Shown here: piece after piece, positions 14,650 through 57,960 of the stretch
How the letters are laid out: the number at the start of each line of letters is the position of its first letter
Numbering within the stretch: position 1 is the stretch's first letter
Source of the DNA: Mizuhopecten yessoensis
Taxonomy: Eukaryota
Assembly: GCF_002113885.1 (NCBI RefSeq)
Contig: NW_018408761.1
Span: forward strand, 997,580-1,061,579
Direction of reading: 5' to 3'
DNA length: 64,000 nucleotides
Notes under the pieces: model-generated
Told to the model about the DNA's origin: nothing
Seen by the model: only the letters and a program-made list of their open reading frames with translations
Database searches by the model: none
Made by a program: the position numbers and the translations under genes

Positions 14650-16212
14650 TAGGTCACCTGGTTGGATTTTTTTCAAACTTGGTCAGAATCATCCTTGGTA
14701 GATGAGGCTACAAAATTGTAAAATTGGGATTCCTACCCCAACCCCTGGGGCCAGGGCGGGGCCCCAAAGGGAAAATTAACCAATATTTCAAAAATCTTCT
14801 TCTTCAGACTCAGAGGTACTACATTTTCTCTACACGAAAAGAAAGATCATCAGTGGCTTTACTTAAATTGTAAATTTCAGGACCCCCAAGCTATCCGTTC
14901 TCCCTTGGGGAGGGGGTAAAGTTTACTATAGTTTATATAGGGAAATAACACTTTTGGGTATATTTTGACAACTTTCTGTAGGAAATTATTTTTACTTGGT
15001 GAGAATTATCCTTGGAGGTAGATGGTTTCAAATTGTAAAATTGAGATTCCTACCCCGACCCCTGGGGCCAGGGCGGGGCCCCAAAGGGAAAATTAATCAA
15101 TATTTCAAAAATCTTCTTCTCCAGACTCAGAGGTACTACAGTGATTTTCTCTACGTGGAAAGAAAGATCATCAGGGGCTTTACTTAAATTGTAAATTTCA
15201 GGACCCCCGAGCTATCCGTTCTCCCTTGGGGAGGGGGTAAAGTTTACTATAGTTTATATAGGGAAATAACACTTTTGGGTATATTTTGACAACTTTCTGT
15301 AGGAAATTATTTTTACTTGGTGAGAATTATCCTTGGAGGTAGATGGTTTCAAATTGTAAAATTGAGATTCCTACCCCGACCCCTGGGGCCAGGGCGGGGC
15401 CCCAAAGGGAAAATTAATCAATATTTCAAAAATCTTCTTCTCCAGACTCAGAGGTACTACAGTGATTTTCTCTACGTGGAAAGAAAGATCATCAGGGGCT
15501 TTACTTAAATTGTAAATTTCAGGACCCCCGAGCTATCCGTTCTCCCTTGGGGAGGGGGTAAAGTTTACTATAGTTTATATAGGGAAATAACACTTTTGGG
15601 TATATTTTGACAACTTTCTGTAGGAAATTATTTTTACTTGGTGAGAATTATCCTTGGAGGTAGATGGTTTCAAATTGTAAAATTGAGATTCCTACCCCGA
15701 CCCCTGGGGCCAGGGCGGGGCCCCAAAGGGAAAATTAACCAATATTTCAAAAATCTTCTTCTCCAGACTCAGAGGTATTACAGTCATTTTCTCTGCATGG
15801 ATGGAAAGATCACCAGGGGTTTTATTTAAATTGTAAATTTCAGGACCCCCGAGCTATCCGTTCTCCCTTGGGGAGGGGGTAAAGTTTACTATAGTTTATA
15901 TAGGGAAATAACACTTTTGGATATATATTTTATCCATTTTCAGCAGAAAATTACTCAAACTTAGTCAGAATCATCTTTGGTGAATGAGAGTATTACTTTG
16001 GGAATCCTGTCCCATCCCCAGGGGCTAGGGCGGGGCCCCAAAGGGAACATTTACCAATATTTTCAAATTCTTATCCTTTGATGTCATGACAAGTATTGTA
16101 TTTCACTTAGTTTACATGCTGATTTCCACTTCACATCTAAACAATAAAATAAAGCTACCAGTACCTATGATATAACTCAGGTGACCGCTAAGGCCCTTGG
16201 GCCTCTTGTTTT
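14650..16212 (+). mobile_element. HINE-like element, type F, carrying 4.6 tandem copies of a 321-bp monomer. It begins 87 bp after the exon-12 donor.
   Basis: Head ttttttAGGTCACCTGG, period-321 copies at 14640, 14961, 15282, 15603 and 15924, and tail CAGGTGACCGCTAAGGCCCTTGGGCCTCTTGTT. Confidence 0.7.
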
Positions 16213-18650: not shown

Positions 18651-19403
18651 ATGGGCAGGTGAGCTAATGCCATGGCACAGCGTTCGTCGTTCTTCGTCCA
18701 TCCATCCATCAACTTTTCCTTTAAAACACTACTTGTCCTGAATGGCCTAGTAGATTTTGACTAAATTTGGTCTGGAGCATCTTTAGGCTAAGGGGACTCA
18801 ATGTTATATAAATGGTGGGTGTGGACTCCCTTGGGGCAGACGGGTGGGGACGAATAGGGGAAATTGAGGTAAAACATTTAAAATCCTTCTTCTACCATAG
18901 CAATTAAGGGATTATATCTTAATTTGGTCTGGAGCATCCTTGGACTAAGGGGACTCAATGTTGTATAAACGGTGGGTTTAGACCCCCTTGGGGCAGAGGG
19001 GTGGGGCCAAATAGGGGAAATAGAGGTAAACTTTTAATATATTTCTTTTACCATAGGGATCAAGGGATTTCATCCCAATTTATTTTTGGAGCATCCTTGG
19101 GCCAAGGGGACTCAATTTTATATAATTGGTGGGTTTGGACCTCCCTGGGGCAGAGTTGCATCACCCAATAGGGGAAATAGAGGTAAAAAACTTTGAAATC
19201 CTGCTTATACAATAGGGATCAATGGATTTCCGGGTGAGGCCTCTCTGGGTGCTGAGAGTTGCGGGGCCAAATAGGCAAAAGAGAAATTCGAGGTTTTAAT
19301 CTTTAAATTCTTTCTTCTTCTCCATTGGAGGGATTTTATGTAATAAAAATAATTTCCCATTATTGCTTTATTATCCAGGTGAGCGATACTGGGCCTCTTG
19401 TTT
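18651..19403 (+). mobile_element. HINE-like element, type C, with a ~190-bp monomer (ggggactcaatgttgtataaa...ggggcagaggggtggggccaaatagggg) x3.5. The left end is truncated.
   Basis: Tail CCAGGTGAGCGATACTGGGCCTCTTGTTTT at 19375-19403. Confidence 0.6.
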
Positions 19404-19410
19404 TACTTTC

Positions 19411-19600
19411 AATTATCAACTCAGATACATACAAACACTGTTAATGTTTTATCACAGATTCATACAAACACTGTTAATGTTTTATCACAGATACATACAA
19501 ACACTGTTAATGTTTTATTACAGTTACATACAAACACTGTTAATGTTTTATCACAGATACATACAAACACTGTTAATGTTTTATCACAAGAACTACTCTT
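19411..19600. repeat. 31-bp minisatellite (agatacatacaaacactgttaatgttttatcac) x6, ending 8 bp before the acceptor of PARP4 exon 14.
   Basis: Direct reading. ORFs 19363-19752, 19398-19637 and 19460-19711 are artifacts within it. Confidence 0.85.
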
Positions 19601-19608
19601 TGTTCCAG

Positions 19609-19735
19609 GTTGTGGTTCTCCAGAAATACAGAAATGACAACGACTCGGCGATCGAGGCCAAGTACATCTTCCCACTGGATGACACAGCAGCTGTTTGTGG
19701 GTTTGAAGCATTCATTAATGGAAAACACATTGTTG
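19609..19735 (+). CDS. PARP4: PARP4 exon 14, VIT domain (VVVLQKYRNDNDSAIEAKYIFPLDDTAAVCGFEAFINGKHIVG).
   Basis: EAKYIFPLDD.AAVCGFEAFINGKHIVGE is essentially identical to human PARP4. Confidence 0.95.
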
Positions 19736-20030
19736 GTGAGTCATACATTTGATTATTAAAAACATTTTAAGATAAACATGGTCTGCTTATTAACAGTGTC
19801 CAGAGATTTTAATAATGTTTTGAATCAGGACTGTAGGATTGTACATTTTAATTAGTTGTATTAAACTCTATACCATATCAATGTGAAGCTAGTGAGACAT
19901 GTTTGCCAGCACTTTGTGGGCAAGATTTTGAGTGTCTTAAATATCATACTGAATTCTACACAAATGGTAAATAACTAATTATTGTATGAAAAAGAAAATT
20001 ACCAAATTTTGTGGACTGATTCGTTTTCAG

Positions 20031-33506: not shown

Positions 33507-33677
33507 GATGAACACTCAAGTTCAGAAGGCATGCCGTCCAGGTATTTCTGGTGTTAAAGTGGAGTGGCAGCAAAACATGGACACGACCAACAGACCTCTT
33601 CAGGCCCCTAATCACATCCCAAGTTTGTTTTCTGGGTCACGACAGGTCGTGTATGGCTTTGTACCTAACTGTACACA
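33507..33677 (+). CDS. PARP4: PARP4 exon 23 (MNTQVQKACRPGISGVKVEWQQNMDTTNRPLQAPNHIPSLFSGSRQVVYGFVPNCTQ).
   Basis: Aligns to human MTRLCSPSCHSVSVKWQQLNPDVPEALQAPAQVPSLFLNDRLLVYGFIPHCTQ. Donor CAG|GTGAGA. Confidence 0.9.
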
Positions 33678-35840
33678 GGTGAGAATTTTTATTACACTGA
33701 TGTGCTGGTAAGCAGGGGTTCAACTAGTTATATCTTTGTATGGCTTTGTACCTAACTGCACACAGGTGAGAATTTTTATTACACTGATGTGCTGGTAAGC
33801 AGGGGTTCAACTACTCCCCTCGGTAGGGACAAGTTATATCTTTGTATGGCTTTGTACCTAGCTGTACACAGGTGAGACTTTGTATTACACTGATGTACTG
33901 GTAAGCAGGGGTTCAACTACTCACCTCGTTAGGGACAAGTTATATCTTATCTTTGTATGGCTTTGTACCTAACTGTACACAGGCGAGAATTTTTATTACG
34001 AGGATGTGCTGGTAAGCAGGGGTTCAACTACTCGCCTCGTTAGGGACAAGTTATATCTTTGTATGGCTTTGTACCTGAATTTAGGCAGGGGAGGCTTTGT
34101 ATTACACTGATGTGCTGGTAAGCAGGGGCTCAACTACTCACCTCGGTAGGGACAAGTTATATCTTCATATGGCTTTGTACCTAACTGTACACAGGTGAGA
34201 ATTTTTATTACGAGGATGTGCTGGTAAGCAGGGTTTCAACTACTCACCTCGGTAGGGACAAGTTATATCTATGTATGGCTTTGTACCTAACTGTACACAG
34301 GTGAGACTTTTTATTACGAGGATGTGCTGGTAAGCAGGGGTTCAACTACTCCCCTCGGTAGGGACAAGTTATATCTTTGTATGGCTTTGTACCTGAATTT
34401 AGGCAGGGGAGGCTTTGTATTACACTGATGTGCTGGTAAGCAGGGGTTCAACTACTTATTTCTGGTGTTAAAGTGGAGTGGCAGCAAAACATGGACACGA
34501 CCAACAGACCTCTTCAGGCCCCAAATCACATCCCAAGTTTGTTTTCTGGGTCACGACAGGTCGTGTATGGCTTTGTACCTAACTGTACACAAGTGAGAAT
34601 TTTTATTACGAGGATGTGCTGGTAAGCAGGGTTTCAACTACTCACCTCGGTAGGGACAAGTTATATCTTCATATGGCTTTGTACCTAACTGTACACAGGT
34701 GAGAATTTTTATTACACTGATGTGCTGGTAAGCAGGGGTTCAACTACTCCCCTCGGTAGGGACAAGTTATATCTTTGTATGGCTTTGTGCCTAACTGTAC
34801 ACAGGTGAGACTTTGTATTACACTAATGTGCTGGTAAGCAGGGGTTCAACTACTCACATCGGTAGGGACAAGTTATATCACGCTTTATATCTAGATAAAA
34901 TAAAACGAGTTCATTACAAAGATGACCGGACAAAAAATGATGTATTCAATATCAATATCAATATTGATATATCTTTGTATGGCTTTGTACCTAACTGTAC
35001 ACAGGTAAGACTTTGTATTACACTGATGTACTGGTAAGCAGGGGTTCAACTACTTACCTCGTTAGGGACAAGTTATATCTTTGTATGGCTTTGTACCTAA
35101 CTGTGCACAGGTGAGACTTTGTATTACACTGATGTGCTGGTAAGCAGGGATTCAACTAGTTATATCTTTGTATGGCTTTGTACCTAACTGTACACTGGTG
35201 AGACTTTGTATTACGAGGATGTGCTGGTAAGCCGGGGTTCAACTACTCACCTCGGTAGGGACAAGTTATATCTATGTATGGCTTTGTACCTAACTGTACA
35301 CAGGTGACACTTTGTATTACGAGGATGTGCTGGTAAGCAGGGGTTCAACTACTCCCCTCGGTAGGGACAAGTTATATCTTTGTATGGCTTTGTACCTAAC
35401 TGCACACAGGTGAGAATTTTTATTACACTGATGTGCTGGTAAGCAGGGGTTCAACTAGTTATATCTTTGTATGGCTTTGTACCTAACTGCACACAGGTGA
35501 GAATTTTTATTACACTGATGTGCTGGTAAGCAGGGGTTCAACTAGTTATATCTTTGTATGGCTTTGTACCTAACTGCACACAGGTGAGAATTTTTATTAC
35601 ACTGATGTGCTGGTAAGCAGGGGTTCAACTAGTTATATCTTTGTATGGCTTTGTACCTAACTGTGCACAGGTGAGACTTTGTATTACACTGATGTGCTGG
35701 TAAGCAGGGGTTCAACTACTCACATCGGTAGGGACAAGTTATATCACGCTTTATATCTAGATAAAATAAAACGAGTTCATTACAAAGCTGACAGGACCAA
35801 AAATGATGTATTCAATATCAATATCAATATTGATTATATT
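33651..35840 (+). repeat. Tandem satellite (~108-bp unit, ~20 copies) derived from the 3' end of PARP4 exon 23 plus its GT donor and the start of the intron. It includes a 180-bp partial re-duplication of the exon at 34440-34620 and an 880-bp higher-order period.
   Basis: The unit ctttgtatggctttgtacctaactgtacacagGTGAGAatttttattacactgatgtgctggtaagcaggggttcaactactc.cctcggtagggacaagttatat repeats head-to-tail. Its first copy is the authentic exon end. Confidence 0.85.
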
Positions 35841-42549: not shown

Positions 42550-42726
42550 TCCCAATCGAGATACACACCCTGACTGGTAGGACTATCCCCGTGAGTGTGT
42601 CCGAGGGCGACACCGTGTCTGACTTGAAGAATAAGATCCATCAGATAGATGGACTTGACCCAGAGCAGCAGAGATTGATTGTTGGTGGGAAACCGCTGAA
42701 GGATCTCGCTGTTCTCTCCGATCTTG
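42550..42726 (+). CDS. Ubiquitin-like domain exon, first part (FPIEIHTLTGRTIPVSVSEGDTVSDLKNKIHQIDGLDPEQQRLIVGGKPLKDLAVLSDL).
   Basis: About 40% identical to ubiquitin residues 1-58 (TLTGKTI, DQQRLIFAGKQL, TLSDY). Acceptor ccattgcag, donor G|GTAATT. Confidence 0.7.
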
Positions 42727-43382: not shown

Positions 43383-43935
43383 TGTTCCCTAGTTATGCTT
43401 ATCAAATTAAGGGTCCTGACAAAGTGTTGTTATTTTTCGGGTCGATCAAAATTCCAATATGGCCGACATGGCCACCATTTTGAAAAAAAACAATTTCAAA
43501 CTTAAGGTCAAGTTCTGCTGGGCCGATTAAACTTAAACTTTTTAGGAATGATCGACTTATTGTCCTGACAAAGTGTTGTTATATTTCGGGTCAATCAGAA
43601 ATCCAATATGGCCACCACGGCCCCCATTTTGAAAAACTATTTCAAACTTAAAGTCAAGTTCTAATGGGCCGATTAAACTGAAACTTTGTAGGAATGATCG
43701 ACTCATGGTCCTGACAAAGTGTTGTTATTTTTCGGGTCGATCAGAAATACAATTTGGCTGCCATGGCCGCTATTTTGAAAATAACTATTTCAAACTTAAA
43801 ATCAAGTTCTAATAGGCCCATTTAACTGAAACTCTTTCTAAGAATGATCAGCTCATGGTCCTGACAAACTTAAGTTAACGTTATACTTAACTATTTTTTA
43901 CTCAAATTGGTACATATTTCAACAACAACAAAAAA
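43383..43935 (+). mobile_element. Type-B element (three ~170-bp monomers), truncated at both ends.
   Basis: The monomer tcctgacaaagtgttgtt...atggccgccacggccgccattttgaaaaa...cgactcatgg is the same as at 6446 and 56232. Confidence 0.55.
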
Positions 43936-44742
43936 TCTTGGATTTCAACAGTTCAGTTTGTTGTCACTTTTTCCCATAAAGTCCTTAAACAATAAGCATT
44001 GTACTAGTAAATAGGTAAAACAACCAGCTCGCTTTGAAAGAACAGTGTCATACACAGCAGAATGAAGGCTTTGCTCAAAAGTTACCACAATTAAGGTGCG
44101 TTACTGTTAACGTGACTCAATCTTACAGATAAGAGAGAAAAGAAGAATCTTACATAGAATCTATGAAGATAATAAGAATAATATCTTTTATTTAACCAGG
44201 GTTACATATTTAGACAATGTCTAGTTTACAATATGGCGCTGAAGCAAACTATATATACAAGCATGACAACAATTTAAGATAACAGTATAACACTGCAGTA
44301 TATGGTATCATCACAGTCAATGTAACTTGAAGTTAAGTAATCCTAAATTAGAATTTAATAGTGAACACTTGCATATCACACGAGTGTTACTGAATGATAT
44401 GGTTAAAGCATAGTCAAATATACATAATATGTTAATATGGCAAAGCGTAAAAAATGACAAGATATACACCAATTAGTCCAATATAGTGTGTATTAAAATG
44501 AGACAAAGAAGTCGGTGGTGTGAAAAATAATAATTTATGATAGAAATATGATGGTACGATAGTCGGTGTCAAGGTCCCCCGGGGATCTCTTGTTTTAAAA
44601 GACAGAAAGATGTGAAAATGAAAATAAAGCATTAATGGGGAAAATAAAACACGAACTGCTAAAGAGGTTAATGTCGTTTTCTTTAAGGCAGTGGCCAATC
44701 ATATCGTCCACAGTCATATCTAAAAGCAGATCTATGCTTTTT

Positions 44743-46463
44743 AGCTCACCGGCCTGAAGGGCAAGTGAGCTTATGCTATGGCGCGGCGTCAGGCATCCGT
44801 CATCTTTTCCTAAAAAACGCTACTTGTCATAAACGACTGAGCAGATTTTGACCAAATTTGGTCAGAAGCATCCTTATGGGAAGGGGAACAAATTTTGTAT
44901 AAATGGTGGGTCTGGCCCCCTAGGGGCTGAGGGGTGGGGCCCAATAGGGAAAATATAGCAAATTCTTTAAAATCCTTCTTCTTTTGTAGGAATAAAAGGA
45001 TTGGTTCCATATTTGGTCTGAAGCATCCTTGGGGGAAGAGGAACCAATTTTGTATAAATGGGGGGTCTGGCCCCTGAGGGGCCTGAGCGACAGGCCAAAT
45101 AGGGGAAACATAGCAAATTCTTTAAAATCCTTCTTCTGTAGGAATGAAAGGATTTGTTCCATATTTAGTCTTAAGCATCCTTGGGTTAAGGGGAACCAAT
45201 TTTGTATAAACTGTGGGTCTGGCCCCTTTGGGGCCTGAGCGACGGGGCCCAATAGGGGAAACATAGCAAATTCTTTAAAATCTTTCTTCTGCAGGAATGA
45301 AAGGATTTGTTCCATATTTGGTCTGAAGCATCCTTGGGTGAAGTGGAACCGATTTTGTATAAGCAAGGGGTCTAGCCCCCATGGATCTGAGGGGCGGGGC
45401 CAAAAGGGGTCAATTGCGCTATATTGATTTAAGCGACTTCTTCTCTGGAACTAAGAGATGGATATCAACCATATTTGACTGGAAGCATCCCTCTGTAGTG
45501 GAGATTCACAATTGTACAAATGGTTGGGCTGACATCCCAGGGGGCTGAGGTGCGGGTCCAAAAGGGCGCAATTTGGCTATATTGGTGTACGACTTCTTCT
45601 GTAGCATTATACCATGGATATCGATCATATTTGGTCAGAAGCTTTCATGGGAAGTAGGGATTCAAAATTGTACAAATGGTGGGGCTGACCCCCCGTGCTA
45701 AGGGGTGGGGCCAAAAAAAGTTTATTACTTGGAAATGGTTGAGATCCCAACCATATAACCATATATATAATTGTGGAGTATGAAGAGAAGCATTCACATT
45801 TGCTTCAAGGATGGCCTAGGGTCTGGCCCCACCCTTTGAGACATAGTCCCTGGGTCATATCTTTGAAACGATTGAGATCCGCACCCCAGAACTATATATA
45901 CAAATGCTTGGCATAAAGAGACAAAAGTAGTCATGGTATTAAAATAGACCCTGGGGTCTGACCGAACCCCTAGGGACCTAGTTTCTTAGTCACAGCTTCG
46001 AAACAGTTGAGATCCCCACCCTATAACTATGCATATATACAATTGCTGAGTATAAAGAGATGAATGCACATATGCTTCCAGGATGGCCTTGGGGTCTGCC
46101 CAAACTTTGCAGACTTAACCCCTGGGTAAATATAACTTTGAAACAGTTGAGATCCCCACCCCAAGACTATAAATACAAATGCTAGACAAAAAGAGACGAA
46201 TATAGTCATGATATTATAATTGATCCTGGCGTCTGGCCACAACCCGAGGGATCTAGTTTCTGAGTCACAGCTTGGAAACAGTTGAGATCCCCACCCCATT
46301 ACCATACATTAAATTGCTGGGCATGAAAAATCTAATACAGACATACTACAAGAATTGACATTGGGGTCTGGCATATACCCTTGGATCTCATTTGGAGAAT
46401 ATTTTGCTTTTTGATTGCTTAGATATTCAGGTGAGGAATTCAGGCCCTCTGTGCCTCTTGTTT
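44743..46463 (+). mobile_element. Composite HINE-like element, copy 1. It runs head hairpin, type-C monomers, a ~180-bp transition monomer, ~150-bp type-D monomers (gaaacagttgagatccccaccc...) and tail. It lies in the intron just upstream of the terminal UBL exon.
   Basis: Head tttttAGCTCACCGGCCTGAAGGGCAAGTGAGCTTATGC, tail CAGGTGAGGAATTCAGGCCCTCTGTGCCTCTTGTTT. The same architecture is repeated twice downstream. Confidence 0.7.
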
Positions 46464-46593
46464 ACCATAAGAATACATCATATTTGATTGAGAGGATGTG
46501 CTTTTAGAGGTGGCAGCTGTTTTGATACAACGTTATGTGAGGGCATGAGTTAGCCTCTATATAACAATTGTATTTTTTTTCTATATTCTTCAG

Positions 46594-46700
46594 ATCTGGA
46601 GTATAATGCTGTCTTCCTGTTACCAAGGCTGCGAGGGGGACTTAGTTTTGGTCTCAAGGAAGATTTGAAAACAAAGCGTATTCTCGCGGAAAACGTATGA
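46594..46700 (+). CDS. Ubiquitin-like domain terminal exon (DLEYNAVFLLPRLRGG + LSFGLKEDLKTKRILAENV, stop TGA at 46698-46700).
   Basis: Completes the UBL with the RLRGG C-terminal motif. The phase-1 junction with 42726 restores the frame. Acceptor ctatattcttcag. Confidence 0.65.
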
Positions 46701-46780
46701 TATGACAATAAGACATAAAATGTGGATTCCACTCTCAAAAATCTAAGGGTGGGGTAGAAAGTGGTTTATTGGACATTTTT

Positions 46781-48636
46781 AGCTCACCTGCCCGAACGGC
46801 AAGTGAGCTTATGCCATGGCGCGGCGTCCAGCATCCTTCAACTTTTCCTAAAAATCGCTACTAGTCATAAACGACTGAGCAGATTTTGACCAAATTTGGT
46901 CAGAAGCATCCTTATGGGAAGGGGAACAAATTTTGTATAAATGGTGGGTCTGGCCCCCCTGGTGGCTGAGGGGTGTGGCCCAATAGGGAACACATAGTAA
47001 ATTCTTTAAAATCCTTCTCCTTCTGTAGGATTGAAAGGATTTGTTCCATATTTGGTCTGATGCATCCTTAGAGAAAGAGGAACCAATTTTGTATAAACCG
47101 TGGGTCTGGACCCCGAGGGGCCTGAGGGGTGGGGCCCAATAGGGAACACATAGTAAATTCTTTAAAAACCTTCCTCTTCTGTAGGAATGAAAGGATTTGT
47201 TCCATATTTGGTCTGAAGCATCCTTAGGGAAAGAGGAACCAATTTTGTATAAACCGCGGGTCTGGCCCCCGAGGGGCCTGAGGGGTGGGGCCCTATAGGG
47301 ATCACATAGTAAATTCTTTAAAATCCTTCCTCTTCTGTAGGAATAAAAGGATTTGTTCCATATTTAGTCTGAAGCATCCTTGGGTAAAGGGGAACCAATT
47401 TTTTATAAACCATGGGTCTGGCCCCACAGGGGCCTGAGCGACGGGGCCCAGTATGGGAAACTGAACAATTTCTTTAAAATCCTTCTTCTCTGTAGGAATG
47501 AAAGGATTTGTTCCATATTTGGTCGGAAGCATCCTTCGGTGAAGGGGAACCAATTTTGTATAAACAAGAGGTCTGGCCCCCAGGAACTTGAGGGGCGGGG
47601 CCAAAAGGGGGCAGTTGCGCTATATTAATTTAAGCGACTTCTTCTCTGGAACTAAGGGATAGATATCAACCATATTTGACTGAAAGCATCCCTCGGAAGA
47701 GGAGATTCAAAATTGTACAAATGGTTGGGCTGACCCCCCGTGCTAAGGGGTGAGGGTTGCTATTAACGACTTATTCTGTAGAATTATGCTAAGGATATCA
47801 ATCATATTTGGTCAGAAGTATTCATGGGAGGTAGGGATTCAAAATTGTACAAATGTTTGGGCTGACCCCCCTGTGCTAAGGGGTTGGGCCAAAAAAGGTT
47901 TATTACTTGGAAATGGTTGAGATCCCCGCGGTATAACCATATATACAATTGTGGAGTATAAAGGGAAGCATGCACATTTGCTCCCAGGATGGCCTAGGGT
48001 CTGGCCCCACCCTTTGAGACATAGTCCCTGGGTCATAACTTTGAAATGATTGAGATTTCCACCCCAGAACTATATATACAAATGCTTGGCATATAGAGAC
48101 AAAAGTAGTCATGGTATTAGAATAGACCCTGGGGTCTGACCGAACCCCTAGGGACCTAGTTTCTTAGGCAAAGCTTCGAAACAGTTGAGATCCCCACCCT
48201 ATAACCATGCATATATACAATTGCTGAGTATGAAGAGATGATTGCACATATGCTTCCAGGATGGCCTTGGGGTCTGCCCCACCCTTGCAGACTTAACCCC
48301 TGTGTCATAACTTTGAAACAGTTGAGATCCCCACTTTAAAACTATATACAAATGCTGGGCTTAAAGAGAAGAAACCAGTCATGATATTAAGAATTGATCC
48401 AGGGGTCTGGCCACAACCCTAGGGATCTAGTTTCTGAGTCACAGCTTGGAAACAGTTGAGATCCCCACCCCATAACCATACATTAAATTGCTGGGCATGG
48501 AAAATCTAATACAGACATACTACAAGAATTGGCATTTGGATCTGGCATATTCCCTTGGATCTCATTTGGAGAATATTTTGCCATGATTGCTTAGATATCC
48601 AGGTGAGCGATTCAGGCCCTCTGGGCCTCTTGTTTT
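46781..48636 (+). mobile_element. Composite HINE-like element, copy 2, beginning 81 bp after the stop codon of the UBL exon.
   Basis: Head tttttAGCTCACCTGCCCGAACGGCAAGTGAGC, tail CCAGGTGAGCGATTCAGGCCCTCTGGGCCTCTTGTTTT. Confidence 0.7.
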
Positions 48637-48768
48637 TTAAATCTACTCTTCATGAATGATAGGTTTCTTCAGTACCTTTAAATTGTGAATGCAATTACCC
48701 TGATGTCTCCCATTCACCACTGGGAAGGGGGAAATTCTGCTACATTTCCTATGGTTATAACAGCTTTT

Positions 48769-50482
48769 AGCTCACCTGGTCCGAAGGACCAGGGTGAGCT
48801 TATGCCATACCATGGCATCCGTCGTCCGTACGTACGTCAACAATTTCTTTAAACGACTTCTTCTTCTTAACCACTGGTTGGAATTAAACTAATTTTGACT
48901 GGAAGCATCCCTAGGTGGTTGGGATTCAAAATTGTACAAATGGTGGGGCTGACTCCCCAGGGGGCTGAGGGGTGGGGCCAAAAGGGGTCAATTTGCCCAT
49001 ATTGCTGTAAGCGACTTCTTCTCTGGAACTAAGAATTGGATATCAACCATATTTGACTGGAAGCATCCCTAGGTGGTGGTGATTAAAAATTGTACAAATG
49101 GCGGGGCTGACTCCCCAGGGGGCTTAGGGGGGGCCAAAAGGGGGCAATTTTGCTATATTGCTACAAACGACTTCTTCTGTAGAACTGTGCACTGGATATC
49201 AATCATATTTGATCAAAAGCATTCCTGGGAGGCAGGGATTTAAAATTGTACAAATGGTGTGGCTGACCCCCCAGGGGGCTGAGGGGCAGGGCCAAAAAGG
49301 GTATTTGGCTATACTGCTTTAAGTGACTTCTTCTCTGGAACTAAGTGATGGATATCAACCTTATTTGACTGGAAGCATCTCTAGGTGGTGGAGATTCAAA
49401 ATTGTACAAACGGTTGGGCTGACCCCCCAGGGGGCTGAGGGGCGGGGCCAAAAGGGGGCAATTTGGTTATATTGCTATAAATGACTTCTTCTGCAGAACT
49501 ATGCCATGGATATTGATCATATTTGGTCGGAAGTATTCATGGGAGGCAGGGATTCAAAATTGTACAAATGGTGGGGCTGACCCCCCGGGCTAAGGGGTGG
49601 GGCCAATAAAATGTATTACTTGGAAATGGTTGAGATCCCCACCATATAACCATATATACAATTGCTGAGTATAAAGAGAAGAATGCACATTTGCTTCCAG
49701 GATGTCCCTAGGGTCTGGCCCCACCCTTGGAGACATAGTCCCTGGGCCATAACTTTAAAACGGTTGAGATCCCCACCCCAAAACTATATATACAAATGCT
49801 GGGCATAAAGAGACGAATGCAATCATGATATCAGAATAGACCCTGGGGTCTGACCGAACCCCTAGGGACCTAGTTTCTTAGTCACAGCTTGGAAACAGTT
49901 GAGAGCCCCACCCTATAACCGTATATATACAATTGCTGAGTATAAAGAGATGATTGCACATATGCTTCCAGGTTGGCCTTGGGGACTGCCCCACCCTTGG
50001 AGACTTAACCCCTGGGTCATAACTTTGAAATGGTTAATATCCCCACCCCAAAACTATATATACAATTGTTGGGCATAAAGAGACGAATGCAGTCATGACA
50101 TTAGAATTGATCCCAGGGTCTGCCCCACCCTTGCAGACTTGGCCCCTGGGTCATAACTTTGAAACGGTTGAGATCCCCACACCAAAACTTTATATACAAA
50201 TGCTTGGCAAAAAGAGACAAATGCAGTCACGATATTAGAATCGATCCTGGGGTCTGGCCACAACTCTAGGGACCTAGTTTCTGAGTCAAAGCTTGGAAAC
50301 AGTTGAGATCCCCACCCCATAACCATACATAAAATTGCTGGGCATGAAAAATTTAATATAGCTATGCTACAAGGATTGGCCTTGGGGTCTGGCATATTCT
50401 CTTGATCTCATTTGGAGAATAGTTTGCCATGATTGCTTAGGTATCCAGGTGAGCGATACAGGCCCTCTGGGCCTCTTGTTTA
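48769..50482 (+). mobile_element. Composite HINE-like element, copy 3.
   Basis: Head cttttAGCTCACCTGGTCCGAAGGACCAGGGTGAGC, tail CCAGGTGAGCGATACAGGCCCTCTGGGCCTCTTGTTT. Confidence 0.7.
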
Positions 50483-50559
50483 TTTATCCTCAGCAGAAAA
50501 TAATTCAGTTCAATTTTTGTTATGGCATGGCATCGATATAGAATCTATTTTAGTTGTTG

Positions 50560-51000
50560 TACAACATAAAGATTTGTGGTTAAATTCTAAGCTATGAGAT
50601 ATGAAGTCTCTCTTACTCACCGGTACTCAGTATAACATGAAGATTTGTGGTTAAATTCTTAGCTATGAGATATGAAGTCTCTCTTACTCACCGGTACTTA
50701 GTATAACATGAAGATTTGTGGTTAAATTCTTAGCTATGAGATATGAAATCTCTTTTACTTGCTGTATAACATGAAGATTTGTGGTTAAATTCTTAGCAAT
50801 GAGATATGAAATCTCTTTTACTTGCTGTATTATATGGAGATTTGTGGTTATATTCTCAGCTATATGATATAGAATCTCTTTTACTTGGTGTATAATATGG
50901 AGATTTGTAGTTATATTCTCAGCTATATGATATAGAATCTCTTTTACTTGCTGTATAACATGTAGATTTGTGGTTAAATTCTCAGACATGTGATATAGAA
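50560..51000. repeat. ~63-bp minisatellite x7 (atgaagatttgtggttaaattcttagctatgagatatgaa.tctct.ttact...), 230 bp upstream of the low-complexity ORF.
   Basis: Direct reading. The minus-strand ORF 50684-50989 is an artifact of it. Confidence 0.8.
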
Positions 51001-51232
51001 TATCCTTTACATGGGGAAAATATGAAGTTTGTTGGTAAATTATTAGCTATTTTTAGTGAACATTGATTAATCAGCCTTAATATTTTTACTTTTGTCAGTT
51101 AAACTATATTTAGTCACTATACTCAATGTAAACTTCTTAATAATACCCACAAAAACCACAGAAGCAATGATTCATGAGTTTACTATTGTACAGTACAGGT
51201 ACATGTGAAGTATTAACATTTCTGTATTTCAG

Positions 51233-51459
51233 GACATGAATGAGTATGATCAGATATATGGTAAGAAGGTGCATACGGAAAAGGACAAAAGCTGTACTGA
51301 TGATGGAAAAAACCCGGTGAAGATGTCCTCATTGTTTTCTCCTTTTAGGCAATCCTTACGAATGATGGCTCCAAGGAAACAGTTAGCAACCAAAGCTGCC
51401 AGAAAATCTGCACCTGCAAACTTTGATGAAAATGAGGAGGAGCAGAATGAGGATGACAG

Positions 51460-51497
<38 letters not shown>

Positions 51498-54337
51498 TTG
51501 AAAAGATGGGCAACTTTAGCTGCATGGCACTTCCAGATGACAACGTGGTTGATGATGCTACGAACAAGAAACAGGAAGTGTCAGATGTAGGAAGAATACC
51601 AGACTCTCCACTCTCAGCAACACAGTTTGGCCCCTTGTCTCCAAAATGTTCAGATTCATTTGGTACAAACTTTGAAAAATTTGAAATCTCTCAGTATTTA
51701 GATGAAGACATGGAGATTGATTTAGATACTGAAGACCCGGCATTCCTCATTCTCACTTCTGAAATATCTGACATATTTTCACCTTCAATGGCAGGCCATT
51801 CTCAGGACACTCCAGCCTATATATCAACCTCCCCATCTTACAAACCAACTTCCCCATCCTATTCGCCCACTTCCCCATCTTACAAACCAACTTCCCCATC
51901 CTATTCGCCCACCTCCCCATCTTACAAACCAACTTCCCCATCCTATTCGCCCACCTCCCCATCTTACAAACCAACTTCTCTATCCTATTCGCCCACTTCC
52001 CCATCTTACAAACCAACTTCTCCATCCTATTCACCAAATAGAAGAGCACGAAGAGCCAAATCAACATTTGAGGATTTCCAACATGAATCAACATCAAACA
52101 ATAAAGATTTTGTGGTTTCAGGTTCAAGACAAGCAAAGTCAAGCAGCACATCTAGTGAACATGGTTTGTGTGGAGCTCCAGTGCAAGCAGAACCAGGCAG
52201 TAAACCAAGTCAGAGCTTCAATTTTAATGCTTCGCTACAAACAGCATCAAGCAATGAACCAACACAAAGTTTGGGATTGGGGGCTCCAAACCTAGCAGAA
52301 CTAGGCGGTAAACCAAGTCAGGGGTTCAATTTTAGTGCTCCTCTAGTAACAGCATCAAGAAATATATCAACACAAAGTTTGGGATTGGGGGCTCCAAACC
52401 TAGCAGAACCAAACACAATGCCAAGTCAAGGGTTTTCCTTTGGAGCTCGAATGCAAACAACTCAAAGCGCTTCACCAGCCGAAGGTTTCAGTTTTTCTCA
52501 GAATCAAACATTGCAGAGCATTACCAGTAAAGGAAGCCATTGTTTTGGATTTGGGACTTCAAAACCAGCCGGAGCAAGCAGAACGACAAGTCAAGGGTTT
52601 TCCTTTGGCGCTCAAATGCAGTCCCAACGATGCAATATACCAACCCAAGATTTCTATTTTGGAGCTTCAAATTCAGCAGGTTTTGGAGATGACGGTGACA
52701 GACGTGGTGGTTATGGAGGTGTCAGTGTTAGACCTGGTGGTTATGGAGATGACAGTGACAGACGTGGTGGTTATGGAGGTGTCAGTGTTAGACGTGGTGG
52801 TTATGGAGGTGTCAGTGAGGGACTTGGTGGTTATGGAGGTGTCAGTGTTAGACGTGGTAGTTATGGAGGTGACAGTGTTAGATGTGGTGGTTATGGAGGT
52901 GTCAGTGAGGAATGTGGTGGTTATGGAGGTGTCAGTGAGGGACTTGGTAGTTATGGAGGTGTCAGTGAGGGACTTGGTAGTTATGGAGATGACGGTGTCG
53001 GACGTGGTGGTTATGGAGATGACAGTGTCGGACGTGGTGGTTATGGAGGTGACAGTGTCGGAGGTGATGGTTATGGAGGTGTCAGTGAGGGATTTGGTGG
53101 TTATGGAGGTGACAGTGAGGGATGTGGTGGTTATGGAGGTGTCAGTGTTAGATGTGGTGGTTATGGAGGTGTCAGTGAGGGACGTGGTGGTTATGGAGGT
53201 GACAGTGAGGGACGTGGTGGTCCTAGACTTGCTGGTTCTAAAGATGGACATGTTTCTTACATAGAAACAGCACCAACATTTACATATTTGAAGGATCTTG
53301 ACTTGAATTTAGCAAAACATGATCCAAAAACTAGGATATTGAAGGAAAATGACAGAAGACCTTCCAGTGTAACAGAGAAGGATCTGCCTTCACAGCCTTT
53401 CAGACATGTACAGGATAAAATGTTCCCACCAGACTTTGATGAATCCTTATTACCTAAACAAAAGAGAAAAATTCCTCCTGTTGGAAGAGGAGGTTCTGGA
53501 TTCACTGCAAGGAATGACCAGGGTCCTGCTGAAACAACCAAAGAACAAGGTCGAAGGTCATTAAAGTCAGTCAGAGGCGCAATGCATGGTGCAAGATCAA
53601 GAGACAGAAATAGGGAACAATCTCGTGAGCTTATTGTGCTGGATAAGAGTAAAAAACTAAGTTTGAGTCATGACAGAAGGCGGAGGAGTTTGAGTAGAAG
53701 TTTGAGTCGAGACAGAAGACAGAGGAGTTTGAGTAGAAGTTTGAGTCGAGACAGAAGGCGGAGGAGTTTGAGTAGAAGTTTGAGTCGAGACAGAAGGCGG
53801 AGGAGTTTGAGTAGAAGTTTGAGTCGAGGAAGGGGGAGAAGAGACTTGGAAAGATGTTACAGTAGAGATAGAGCAAGAAAGGAAAATAAAAAAATGCACA
53901 GATCAAGTGGAAATAATGATACAAACAGTAGGAATAAAAATAGGGACAAAGCAGGAAGCAAAATAGACAGAGATCCTGCAAGAGAAAGTAAGAAACAGAT
54001 AAAGCATAAAAATGAAAAGAAGGAGCAAACAAAGGCTGATGAACAGGTTGTCAAAACATTTGGGAAAAAAGGGAAGAAAAGGGAACAGACAAGGGATGAT
54101 GAAGAGATTGTCAAAACTGGAGGGAAGAACCTGTCAGGAAAGTTGGAATATGATGATCATGAGAAAATGGACTTTACAGTGGACATGGCACCAACTTTGA
54201 AAGTCTGGGATGTAACATCAGAGACAGGCAAGGACATTGTGAAATTCATAAAGTATATTTCTGATTCAATCTTCTTTTATATACAAAAGATCTGTAATTT
54301 TCTACAAATTCAAGTGAGCTTAAGTGAACTTTCTTGA
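51233..54337 (+). CDS. 3.1-kb open reading frame (giant exon or intronless gene) encoding a modular low-complexity protein. Its modules are a histone H3(15-31) mimic, a poly-Asp tract, RNAPII-CTD-like heptads, FG repeats, GGYGG repeats, an RS domain and a K/E tail. It is probably the large low-complexity exon of the PARP4 ortholog.
   Basis: Uninterrupted 1033-codon ORF. The acceptor tttcag at 51227-51232 lies immediately after an in-frame TGA at 51206. Phase 0 is compatible with PARP4 exons 27 or 28. Human PARP4 also has a large S/P-rich low-complexity region at this position. Confidence 0.7.
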
Positions 54338-54339
54338 TT

Positions 54340-54960
54340 AGCTTGTAATGATATACAGTCCTGCAGTAAAACTTGTCTAAGAACTCACCTGTCTAAATCA
54401 TCTTGTAGTGTTACAGTCCTACAGTAAAACTTGTCTTAGAACTCACCTGTCTAAATCATCTTGTAATTATATTTATACAGCCCTACAGTAAAACTTGTCT
54501 AAGAACTCACCTGTCTAAATCATCTTGTAATTATATATATACAGTCCTACAGTAAAACTTGTCTTAGAACTCACCTGTCTAAATCATCTTGTAATTATAT
54601 ATATACAGCCCTACAGTAAAACTTGTCTAAGAACTCACCTGTCTAAATCATCTTTTAGTGTTACAGCCCTACAGTAAAACTTGTCTAAGAACTCACCTCT
54701 CTTAATCATCTTGTAATTATATATATACAGTCCGACAGTAAAACTTGTCTTAAAACTCACCTGTCTAAATCATCTTTTAGTGTTACAGCCCTACAGTAAA
54801 ACTTGTCTAAGAATTCACCTGTCTAAATCATCTTGTAGTGTTACAGTACTACAGTAAAACTTGTCTAAGAATTCACCTGTCTAAATCATCTTGTAGTGTT
54901 ACAGCCCTACAGTAAAACTTGTCTAAGAACTCACCTGTCTTAATCATCTTGTAATTATAT
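54340..54960. repeat. ~60-bp minisatellite x10 (cagtcctacagtaaaacttgtctaagaactcacctgtctaaatcatcttgta...), immediately downstream of the low-complexity ORF stop.
   Basis: Direct reading. Confidence 0.85.
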
Positions 54961-55605
54961 ATATACAGTCCTACAGCATTTCATGTCTCAGAATCGATTT
55001 GTGTAAACCAACTTGTGTCCATGTTATATTTCATGGTAATCTCAAAATCCAAGATGGTTGCCCTTAGTTATCCTTTTCATTGGGTAAAACCCTTCCTCTG
55101 AGACATTTTCAATTTTTGTATACTAGAAAATGTTTCTTATGTGAAACTCAAATAATGTTGTTACTTTTCATGACAAAAATACAAGATAGCCACCAATGGC
55201 TCCGATTTGCAGACAGTTGCTATTTCTCTATAACAGTAGCAATTGACTTCTAACTAATCTAAATGATTCAAATTTAATGTTCCTGTATTGTTTAAAAAAA
55301 ATGTAATTCATGTGAGCGTTAAAGCTTATTTCGTTTCTTGTTATTATACATATATCTACACTGTCCATAACAACCAAATGCATGCTCAAGGAAAGGCTAA
55401 CTGTTAAAACAGAATCTGATGTCATGCACTTTTTTCCCATATTGATCATTAAGTTTCATTCAACAAACCTTAATCGTTGGATATGGAAAAAATATCCTAG
55501 AATAGATAACAAACTACAGTTTAGAAGTATCATAAATCATTTGGTATATCTAGAACATCTAATTAAAAAGAAAAGAGAATAATAACATTTGTTCTATTGT
55601 TACAG

Positions 55606-56231: not shown

Positions 56232-56955
56232 AGGTCACTTGAGCTTAAGCTCAATTGACCTATTGTTATCCGTCTTTGTCCGTCGTCTTCCGTCGTGCGT
56301 CGTCAGTCGTGTGTCGTCATTTTACATTTTCAACTTAAGCTGAAATACTGGCAAAGGGATTTCATTAATATTTCATGGGAAGTTTACTGACATTTTCCAG
56401 ACAAAGTGTTAATATTTTTCGGGTCAATCAGAAATCCAATATGGCCACCACGTCTGCTATTTTGAAAAACTATTTCAAACTTAAAGTCAAGTTCTGCTAA
56501 GCCGATTGAACTGAAACTTTGTCGGAATGATCGACTCATGGTCCTGACAAAGTATTGTTATTTTTCGGGTTGATCCGAAATCTGATATGGCCGACATGGC
56601 CGCCATTTTGAAAAACTCTTTCAAACTTAAAGTCAAGTTCTACTGGGCCGATTGAACTAAAACTTAATAGGAATGATCGACTCATGGTCCTGACAAAGTG
56701 TTGTTATTTTTCGGGTCGATCAGAAATCCAATATGGCCACCAAGGCCGCCATTTTGAAAATAACTATTTCAAACTTAAAGTCAAGTTCTGCTAGGCCGAT
56801 TTAACTGAATCTTTTTAGGAATTATTGACTCATGGTCCTGACAAACTTAAGTTAACGTTATACTTAACTATTTTTTACTCAAATTGGTACATATTTCAAC
56901 AACAAAAATAAATACTGTAGGACTCGGGTGACCGTTAAGGCCCATGGGCCTCTTG
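56232..56955 (+). mobile_element. Type-B HINE-like element, inserted directly abutting the previous element.
   Basis: Head AGGTCACTTGAGCTTAAGCTCAATTGACCT (palindrome), three ~170-bp monomers, tail GGTGACCGTTAAGGCCCATGGGCCTCTTGTT. Confidence 0.65.
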
Positions 56956-57304
56956 TTATAATTATGTTTTAAGTACAATAATGCATACAGAAGTATTTTG
57001 TTTTCTTTTATTATCTTTTAGGATAGCTATTTAAATGTTTTGTTCATGAGTAACTGTAATGGAAACCAGCCTTCAGGAGAATATTCTCTTATTTATTTGC
57101 TTTTTATTACAAGGGCTTCTGTATACCACTAGGTATCCTCCTTAAACCTAGAAGAAGAATGTAATACTTCGATGTATAATGGATATTCGATTTCTACACT
57201 TGATTTCAACTCATTAATTATTGGAAACATTACAGAATTCTGCTGCTGATATATCACACATTAAATCAAATTGAATTAAATTTGAATGCAAAATTCACTT
57301 TCAG

Positions 57305-57392
57305 TTGTGAGGATGTCGGGATCTGGAAAGGCATTGTACGAAAGATTTCAAAAGTCCCTAACACTGAGGATCTCCTGCAACACATTAATACG
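57305..57392 (+). CDS. PARP4: PARP4 C-terminal exon (ICEDVGIWKGIVRKISKVPNTEDLLQHINT).
   Basis: Together with the next exon, aligns to human VPWTELLSLQTEDGFWKLTPEL. Acceptor cacttttcag, donor GTACAG. Confidence 0.7.
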
Positions 57393-57418
57393 GTACAGAA
57401 ATAGTTAGTCTTGTTTTT

Positions 57419-57960
57419 TATGCCCCCACCATAAAATGGGGAGGCATATATAGTGTTACCCATGTCTGTCCCGTCGCGTCCCGTCCCGTCCCGATTCAAT
57501 GTAAACACTTGGCAGCTTCATTCTTCGACAGATTTTGGTCAAACTTTATACAAAGGTCAAGTATGAGTATACTTCGGACATCGTTTTATTTCAGGGATCC
57601 AAGGTCAAGGCCAAGATCACACTTGCTATATATAGAAAATCATCAACTGATACAATTTAAACACTTAGCAACTTCATTCTTTCAAGGATTTTGGTCAAAC
57701 TTTATGCAAAGGTCAAGTATGAGTATACTTCGGACATTGTTGTGTTTCAGGGTTCCAAGGTCAAGGCCCAGGTCAATGTTGCTATATATAGAAAATCATC
57801 TACTGATTAAATTTAAATGCTTAGCAACTTCATTCAATATGTTATGGAGATGGTAATAACATACAGAAAATACATATGAATATTAAAATCAACTTTAAGT
57901 GTAGTACCTTGTGTGTGTGCATGTTTCAGGGTATCAAGATCAAAGTGGTTGTAACTTTTT
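57419..57960 (+). mobile_element. Family-G element with ~140-bp x2.5 internal tandem repeats.
   Basis: Head ttttatgcccccaccataaaatggggaggcatatatagtgttacccatgtctgtcc is homologous to 41441-41530. Confidence 0.4.

Follow-up and report, generated by a model that had tools for sequence, protein, structure and literature searches.

Here, we analyze a large exon in a 64,000-nucleotide stretch of Mizuhopecten yessoensis DNA (NCBI RefSeq assembly GCF_002113885.1, contig NW_018408761.1, positions 997,580 to 1,061,579 of the forward strand; hereafter, the window). The exon encodes, in this order, an H3-tail-like peptide, a poly-Asp tract, heptads resembling those of the C-terminal domain (CTD) of RPB1, FG motifs, GGYGG decapeptides, and an RS-type module, and it contains five in-frame tandem arrays. 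An earlier interpretation made from the letters alone (the sequence-only reading) had taken this organization as a case of de novo domain birth by recently expanded coding minisatellites. We found that only some of the arrays are nearly uniform, and we identified a distant homologue in which most of the module types occur as degenerate or non-repeat DNA. We suggest that the recent part of the exon's history is the re-amplification or homogenization of old modules, i.e., turnover, rather than their de novo birth. Altogether, we consider it likely that this is a real protein-coding exon, encoding ~1,000 residues of disordered low-complexity sequence with short-motif modules and consisting to ~37% of tandem arrays; this degree of confidence refers to the whole explanation, including array turnover, ancestral modules, and probable membership of the exon in a PARP4-like gene.

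Reading frame and tandem arrays of the exon

No frame in the window is open for longer than that of the exon (51236..54337, forward strand), which has 1,042 codons between stops and 1,033 when counted from its first ATG; all other frames are open for at most ~460 codons. The exon starts in phase 0 behind a splice acceptor AG at 51231-51232 (tttcag/GAC ATG), and the ATG at 51236 has a purine at −3. A candidate donor (AAA/GTATAT) is located at 54253 in phase 2; if it is not used, the frame runs on to a TGA at 54335-54337. A Pfam search of the open reading frame (ORF) returned no domain. In a single-sequence AlphaFold2 model, the mean predicted local distance difference test (pLDDT) score is 34, with 983 of 1,034 residues below 50, and Ser, Gly, Asp, Arg, and Lys together make up 49% of the residues. 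The low pLDDT, the lack of a Pfam domain, and the skewed composition argue that the exon encodes a long intrinsically disordered segment. The window is eukaryotic; it has a GC content of ~36% and contains spliced exons.

We consider it very unlikely that the frame is non-functional, i.e., minisatellite-rich DNA that is open by accident or a decaying pseudo-exon. Such an origin would fit with the observations that several frames on both strands are open across the repeats, that non-coding minisatellites flank the exon, and that the exon has no Pfam domain and almost no database homologues. However, ~650 non-repeat codons of the exon are open in one frame only; the differences among the units of the 42-nt array are six synonymous and one non-synonymous; and a homologous exon elsewhere, described below, retains non-repeat motifs and identical splice phases.

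Using Tandem Repeats Finder (TRF) on the ORF, the check that the sequence-only reading had proposed, we detected five arrays with scores of 77-694, among which the 42-, 108-, 30-, and 39-nt arrays score 312-694 (Table 1). At a threshold score of at least 50, dinucleotide-preserving shuffles of the exon (n = 50) gave zero arrays, arguing that the arrays did not arise by chance. The periods (3, 42, 108, 30, and 39) are all multiples of 3; the arrays are in frame, and none has an indel. The consensus units of the 42-, 108-, 30-, and 39-nt arrays were not found elsewhere in the window at up to 25% mismatch. Thus, the arrays are not derived from dispersed satellite families of the neighboring introns, and we ruled out dispersed repeats of the window as the source of the units.

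Three of the arrays reach near-identity (~95%). The (GAT)12 tract is exact and in frame and encodes the poly-Asp stretch as originally described, although it lies outside the region given for the modules, which began at 51818. Of the CTD-like heptads, the sequence-only reading stated that they come from 4.5 copies of a 42-nt unit, which agrees with the 4.9 copies at 96% matches found by TRF. The five in-frame 42-nt units average 96.7% identity to their consensus and contain seven changed codons, of which six are synonymous and one is P>L. The two 21-nt halves of this unit are identical at only 14 of 21 bases and differ at four synonymous sites plus AAA versus TCG; this divergence indicates that an older di-heptad was recently amplified as a block. 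The RS block, likewise described as 4.5 copies, is encoded by a 39-nt array of 4.4 copies at 95% matches, in which two central units are identical, one has two differences, and the edges are progressively degenerate. These identities of 95-100%, with differences that are mostly synonymous, support that the 42-nt array, the 39-nt array, and (GAT)12 are young or recently homogenized at the DNA level.

The 30-nt and 108-nt arrays, with 87 and 88% matches, respectively, do not reach this level. For the GGYGG block, the proposed number of ~18 copies was accurate (18.1 by TRF), while the unit is 30 nt and not 33 nt; indeed, the unit as originally quoted is itself 30 letters long. The mean pairwise identity of the 30-nt units is 84.6% (minimum, 66.7%). 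In codons 1-5 (GGT GGT TAT GGA GGT), 17 units have seven differences, none of which is synonymous, and no four-fold site carries a synonymous change; codons 6-10 have 43 nucleotide differences. Compared with the consensus, 48 of 48 changed codons alter the amino acid. A few unit types (VSVRR, VSEGL, and DDSxxR) recur at non-adjacent positions. This pattern is consistent with a limited stock of founder units that unequal exchange has shuffled and in which some CpG sites have decayed (CGT>TGT); it is also conceivable that the variable pentapeptide is under diversifying selection. In the case of the FG block, the suggested three copies of a ~120-nt unit could not be upheld: the period is 108 nt, copies 1 and 2 (52184-52399) are 87% identical, and the putative third copy (52400-52507) has 54% and 70% identity. 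The FG motifs beyond the third copy, up to 52675, do not form a DNA tandem array. Therefore, the description of the modules as products of in-frame tandem arrays applies to the named modules, with the FG block only partly an array, and the term "near-perfect" applies to the 42-nt units, the center of the 39-nt array, and (GAT)12 but not to the 30-nt and 108-nt units. The claim of recent expansion divides along the same line.

Upstream of the acidic tract and outside the minisatellite arrays, ORF residues 45-61 are an exact copy of residues 15-31 of histone H3, including K18, K23, R26, K27, S28, and ARKSAP. It is unusual that one exon unites an exact H3 17-mer with CTD-like, FG, G/Y-rich, and RS modules, and the outline of this combination is kept in a second species. 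Searching the literature for histone mimicry, CTD heptads, and PARP4 combined in one protein gave nothing relevant.

A distant homologue and the age of the modules

We searched exhaustively for homologues of the whole ORF among 1.8 billion representatives using phmmer. All of the 150 listed hits align via the CTD-like stretch, and most resemble RPB1 CTDs. A motif-class screen of these 150 hits identified a sole true homologue, P0102, which is the 775-residue product of a 3,061-nt genomic Logan contig (L001, from SRR29726839); the homologous exon is located at 528-2860 of this contig. The exon and P0102 share ~31% identity in the best stretch, and P0102 was missed by a BLASTP search in which the CTD was masked and SEG was switched on. 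Using Smith-Waterman alignment against 300 composition-preserving shuffles, we obtained z scores of 8.0 for the part following the CTD-like module and 6.8 for the PDFD region, with none of the 300 shuffles reaching either score, and of 4.1 for the N-terminal part, where one of 300 shuffles reached the observed score. The PDFD region holds a conserved 34-residue motif (aligned with P0102 RQVTDKYFAPDFDPLLIP; Table 1) that is not repetitive, and the homology is therefore anchored outside the repeats. In addition, P0102 SPLFGPKSP…VEDEIDLSELGF matches two stretches of the exon in a colinear alignment, and P0102 DKYFAPDFDPLLIP matches a 14-residue stretch. L001 has an AG acceptor in phase 0, 9 nt ahead of its ATG, and a phase-2 donor, GTGAGT, that overlaps its stop; splice phases 0 and 2 are common to both exons. 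Together, these comparisons lead us to regard P0102 as a genuine, though distant, homologue of the exon.

The module order of P0102 (H3-tail-like, acidic, CTD-like, and RS) resembles that of the exon, and the CTD-like heptads and the RS domain occur in the same order in both. P0102 has an H3-like match (YGARKSAPVAE plus a 12-residue stretch), an acidic tract that is an interrupted DDS repeat (DDSDDSDDS) versus the exact (GAT)12 in the window, ~11 CTD-like heptads (YRPTAPS among them) whose second position is basic, and a duplicated G/F/Y-rich 26-mer followed by RGRGRGG and a ~130-residue RS domain. A Pfam search of P0102 returned no domain. At the DNA level, the CTD-like module of L001 is periodic at 21, 42, and 63 nt with only 78-83% matches, and its RS domain is not a tandem array. 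The young arrays of L001 differ from those of the window (78 nt × 1.9 at 92% and 42 nt × 2 at 97%). Because P0102 has the H3-like, acidic, CTD-like, and RS modules as degenerate or non-repeat DNA, these modules predate the arrays and, judging from this comparison, would be ancestral module types that are older than the split of the two species. ORF residues ~268-709, which make up the FG and GGYGG blocks, correspond to a mere ~22 residues in P0102, which lacks a counterpart of these blocks at that place. These two blocks appear to be lineage-specific expansions via the 108-nt and 30-nt units; given two sequences, a loss in the P0102 lineage would be equally possible. Thus, de novo birth is tenable for the FG and GGYGG blocks and not for the H3-like, acidic, CTD-like, and RS modules.

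It is quite possible, if short of probable, that the near-identity of units does not reflect recent expansion at all; rather, the arrays may be old and, under selection for the motifs, may have stayed uniform through concerted evolution, by continual gene conversion or unequal exchange. An RS domain and heptads that are basic at position 2 both occur in the very distant P0102, which argues that the modules are old. The four synonymous differences between the 21-nt halves indicate that an old di-heptad was propagated as a block, and the GGT GGT TAT GGA GGT core of the 30-nt units is invariant at synonymous sites. However, concerted evolution and recent re-expansion are indistinguishable from one genome, and divergence peaks at the edges of the 42- and 39-nt arrays, which fits both alike.

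Several observations weigh against our explanation by turnover of ancestral modules. A single homologue was recovered, and its similarity outside the low-complexity segments is modest; the repeat copy numbers of an assembly can be wrong; and the many amino-acid changes and the lack of synonymous variation in the 30-nt array are not what simple neutral decay following a single expansion would leave. A word-indexed search with the concatenated non-repeat segments returned only histone H3, which is explained by the exact H3(15-31) 17-mer, and a non-repeat query from which the H3 and K/R-rich parts had been removed gave no match; all proteins returned by this search tool have <1,000 residues, so that long gene models may have been missed. 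An exact look-up of the 1,033-residue ORF in public assemblies and the searches for non-repeat homologues did not find a second haplotype or a close relative.

Gene membership and repeat-prone surroundings

Upstream of the exon on the forward strand, we found PARP regulatory and catalytic pieces at 11.1-14.6 kb, a VIT domain at 18.3-23.2 kb, a vWA domain from 23.7 kb, and further PARP4-like exons at 37.8, 39.5, 40.4, and 41.2 kb. A query assembled from upstream exons retrieves PARP4 proteins, the best of which are from oyster and snail with 55-59% identity. Two additional exons splice in frame to a ubiquitin-like domain (Ubl; PF00240, 7e-16), and the joint 46694>51233 reads through in phase 0 (…KRILAEN/DMNEYDQ…) into the large exon, which is located 4.5 kb downstream of the last recognizable PARP4-like exon. 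A gene model from Mytilus coruscus, P0207, comprises the end of an ITIH-like region and a Ubl, followed by a disordered stretch of 510 residues that is rich in Q, FG, and G and contains KKQKKIP and YGPRKSAP; its C-terminus and P0102 share K.Q..IP.P…YG.RKSAP..E.I..P (z = 5.3). A Ubl after an ITIH-like region is present in P0207 and also in the ENA protein P0187. We favor, as reasonably probable, the interpretation that the exon is a large disordered exon of the upstream PARP4-like (vault PARP) gene.

The exon could instead belong to a stand-alone gene downstream of the PARP4-like gene that encodes a multi-module disordered protein from ATG 51236. We lean against this possibility while giving it real weight; the repeats would behave alike in both cases. 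The evidence that argues for it also counts against PARP4 membership, which would follow from position, strand, splice phase, and one mussel model, or is neutral to it. The predicted P0102 protein of 775 residues starts from an ATG in alignment with ATG 51236, which itself has the purine at −3 mentioned above, and the Ubl exon at 46594-46694, if unspliced, reads V-stop one codon past its donor. Moreover, the ORF has no significant similarity to the C-terminus of the M. coruscus PARP4-like protein (z = 3.1), and an MVP-interaction domain was not found downstream using PDB sequences against candidate exons and forward-strand ORFs at 54.3-64 kb, in a search that is weak because the exons are short, the domain is possibly divergent, and the gene may extend past the end of the window. 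On the other hand, the ATG follows an AG acceptor in phase 0 at a distance of 3-9 nt in the two species, and this phase fits the Ubl exon; the M. coruscus model runs from the Ubl into FG- and G-rich disorder bearing RKSAP, in a motif common to P0102; and the exon shares the strand of the PARP4-like gene across a gap of only 4.5 kb.

Table 1. Positions of the exon, its arrays, and other features, counted from the first letter of the window
Feature	Position	Strand	Evidence or detail
Large coding exon, intrinsically disordered low-complexity segment	51233..54252 or to 54337	+	~1,030 codons
Exact copy of histone H3 residues 15-31 (17 residues), non-tandem	51368..51418	+	Longest exact peptide common to three H3 proteins
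(GAT)12 microsatellite, Asp12	51461..51496	+	TRF period 3, 51460-51501, 14 copies, 94% matches
42-nt × 5 array, ten CTD-like heptads (YKPTSPS/YSPTSPS alternating)	51827..52036	+	TRF 51827-52032, 4.9 copies, 96% matches, 0 indels
108-nt unit, FNF/FSFG + SLGLGAP motifs	52184..52507	+	Two good copies and a diverged third; TRF 52186-52411, 2.1 copies, 88% matches
30-nt × 18 array, GGYGG + variable pentapeptide	52676..53221	+	TRF 52679-53221, 18.1 copies, 87% matches, 0 indels; unit table
Conserved 34-residue motif, non-repeat	53402..53503	+	Aligns with P0102 RQVTDKYFAPDFDPLLIP; BLASTP E = 0.001, z = 6.8
39-nt array, RS-type module	53654..53848	+	TRF 53659-53828, 4.4 copies, 95% matches; in-frame units
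PARP4-like (vault PARP) gene	about 11100-46700	+	PARP, VIT, vWA, and ubiquitin-like exons
Upstream exon, first part of ubiquitin-like domain	42550..42726	+	tblastn of M. coruscus P0207, splice sites read
Upstream exon, end of ubiquitin-like domain (LEYNAVFLLPRLRGG...)	46594..46694	+	Ends in phase 0
63-nt × 8 minisatellite, non-coding, upstream intron or flank	50535..51050	.	TRF
58/122-nt minisatellite, non-coding, directly past the open frame	54346..54976	.	TRF
321 nt × 3.9 array (96%); 87/106-nt arrays; 134-156-nt unit families with GGGGCGGGGCC-like core	14677-15926; 33650-35718; 43412-50345; 56396-57835		Non-coding

Tandem repeats are also frequent outside of the exon. TRF arrays with a score of at least 100 cover 20.1% of the window outside the exon versus 36.9% of the exon, and 21% of the whole window. 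As the 63-nt × 8 minisatellite just upstream of the exon shows, the DNA of this region has a general tendency to form repeats. A period of 3n is found in roughly half of the window's non-coding arrays, and many of these arrays have 0% indels. We therefore dropped the period of 3n as independent proof of selection; rather, it is a condition for an open frame. The large non-coding arrays fill the introns of the PARP4-like gene and make up most of the ~20% tandem-repeat content of the window. One 33-nt × 5.1 array (95% matches; 19422-19588, +) in the intron directly upstream of the VIT-domain exon is open in the frame of that exon (ORF 19300-19749), illustrating that a non-coding 3n array can be mistaken for a coding one. 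The second longest ORF of the window, an intronless, charged-residue-rich frame of 459 residues at 1227-2606 (−), has no match in Pfam, as was the case for the other window ORFs compared with Pfam as such.

Proposed turnover and comparison with known systems

We infer the following course of events. The (GAT)12 tract would have originated by replication slippage and the 30- to 108-nt units by unequal exchange or gene conversion in a repeat-prone region. Frame-breaking variants would have been filtered out, and because only indel-free arrays with 3n periods fit the reading frame, those would persist. The arrays may alter the copy number of motifs (valency), and hence multivalent binding, and not a fold; the motifs affected would be phospho-acceptor heptads, RS dipeptides, aromatics in a Gly-rich spacer, and FG motifs, whose roles are predicted. 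According to this model, the ancestral H3-like, acidic, CTD-like, and RS modules undergo species-specific turnover, which may have left them near-identical here and degenerate in P0102. Even one homologue is of value here, since it allows older types of module to be told apart from the young arrays.

The comparison with PARP4 bears on the wider meaning of the exon. The largest exon of mammalian PARP4, exon 30 in humans, is described as encoding a disordered region of >300 residues and as alone carrying the signal of recurrent positive selection in the gene (PMC4038475). Similarly, the exon analyzed here would be the largest of its gene, is predicted to be disordered, lies downstream of the VIT and vWA domains, and is barely alignable between species, as seen from a mean pLDDT of 34 and one distant homologue. 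In PARP4, this disordered region is placed as a linker that joins the ITIH-like region to the C-terminal MVP-interacting domain (PMC10450202; PMC12280208). Unlike in the domain descriptions that these two sources give for human PARP4, a Ubl precedes the exon here; also unlike PARP4, no MVP-interaction domain was found after the exon in the weak search mentioned above, and the passages of PMC4038475 on the mammalian exon do not describe it as minisatellite-built. If the exon belongs to a vault PARP, it would place recognizable motifs (an H3 K27/S28 peptide, CTD heptads, FG, and RS) in the functionally obscure PARP4/vault region, and repeat turnover, beside point substitution, would be suggested as a driver of the rapid evolution of this region.

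Histone H3 tail mimicry is known from ARKS- and ARKSAP-type motifs in non-histone and viral proteins. The exon shares with such mimics an exact H3(15-31) 17-mer with ARKSAP; however, this peptide is much longer than the usual 4-6 residues and occurs in a disordered exon of a host beside motif arrays. Degenerate H3-like versions are found in P0102, and YGPRKSAP is found in M. coruscus P0207. We speculate, with little confidence, that the exon is a disordered arm of a mollusc vault PARP whose modules copy motifs of host hubs and serve as integrated baits or decoys for pathogen factors aimed at these hubs or, alternatively, as acceptors or recruiters in cis for the attached, immune-related ADP-ribosyltransferase. 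Minisatellite turnover would then rapidly tune motif valency in a host-pathogen conflict and, in invertebrates, correspond to the positive selection seen in exon 30 of mammalian PARP4. Two observations are compatible with this idea but do not demonstrate it: RKSAP recurs in P0102 and in the C-terminus of the Mytilus PARP4-like protein, and amino-acid-changing differences are in excess among the 30-nt units.

The CTD-like module resembles the RPB1 CTD in having ten heptads, five of which are exactly YSPTSPS, with di-heptad periodicity. The top database matches of the whole ORF cover only this 80-residue stretch, with 60-84% identity, and the longest of the matching proteins (1,600-1,900 residues) have the length and the C-terminal repeat position expected of RPB1 CTDs. 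In contrast to RPB1, the ORF has no RPB1 or other Pfam domain, the neighboring exons are PARP4-like, Lys occupies position 2 of alternate heptads (Arg in P0102), and the module is internal. Among the listed phmmer matches, many proteins have CTD-like arrays away from an RPB1-type C-terminal end (e.g., P0009, P0020, and P0098); in P0009, which has 1,355 residues, the best heptad match is at residues 237-312, and some of these proteins also have Y[KR]PT heptads. CTD-like arrays outside RPB1 thus seem not to be rare. The remaining motif classes are those of the RS domains of SR proteins, the FG repeats of nucleoporins, and the G/Y-rich low-complexity domains of the FUS or hnRNP type. The exon matches these in its RS-type units, GFSFG and FNF motifs with polar spacers, and GGYGG units, a resemblance of motifs only; unlike these proteins, the ORF contains no RRM, nucleoporin anchor, or other folded domain based on Pfam.

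Coding minisatellites, or variable-number tandem repeats (VNTRs), build the repetitive regions of MUC1, involucrin, and the yeast FLO adhesins, as well as the repetitive low-complexity domains of mollusc shell-matrix proteins. Like coding VNTRs, the exon has head-to-tail units of 30-108 nt in multiples of 3 and free of indels, which form arrays of short motifs in a disordered segment, and the unit and copy number are species-specific. Copy-number polymorphism, which defines VNTRs and which the sequence-only reading had considered likely, would be a prediction for the arrays of the window, read here from one assembly. Unlike in known coding VNTRs, five unrelated arrays occur in one exon, each encoding another class of nuclear-protein motif, and the exon has neither a secretion signal nor a structural-material context. 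In Borg elements, tandem repeats are described as creating disordered regions (PMC9879509). The generation and resizing of disordered regions by coding tandem repeats is a well-documented process, of which this exon is a further example.

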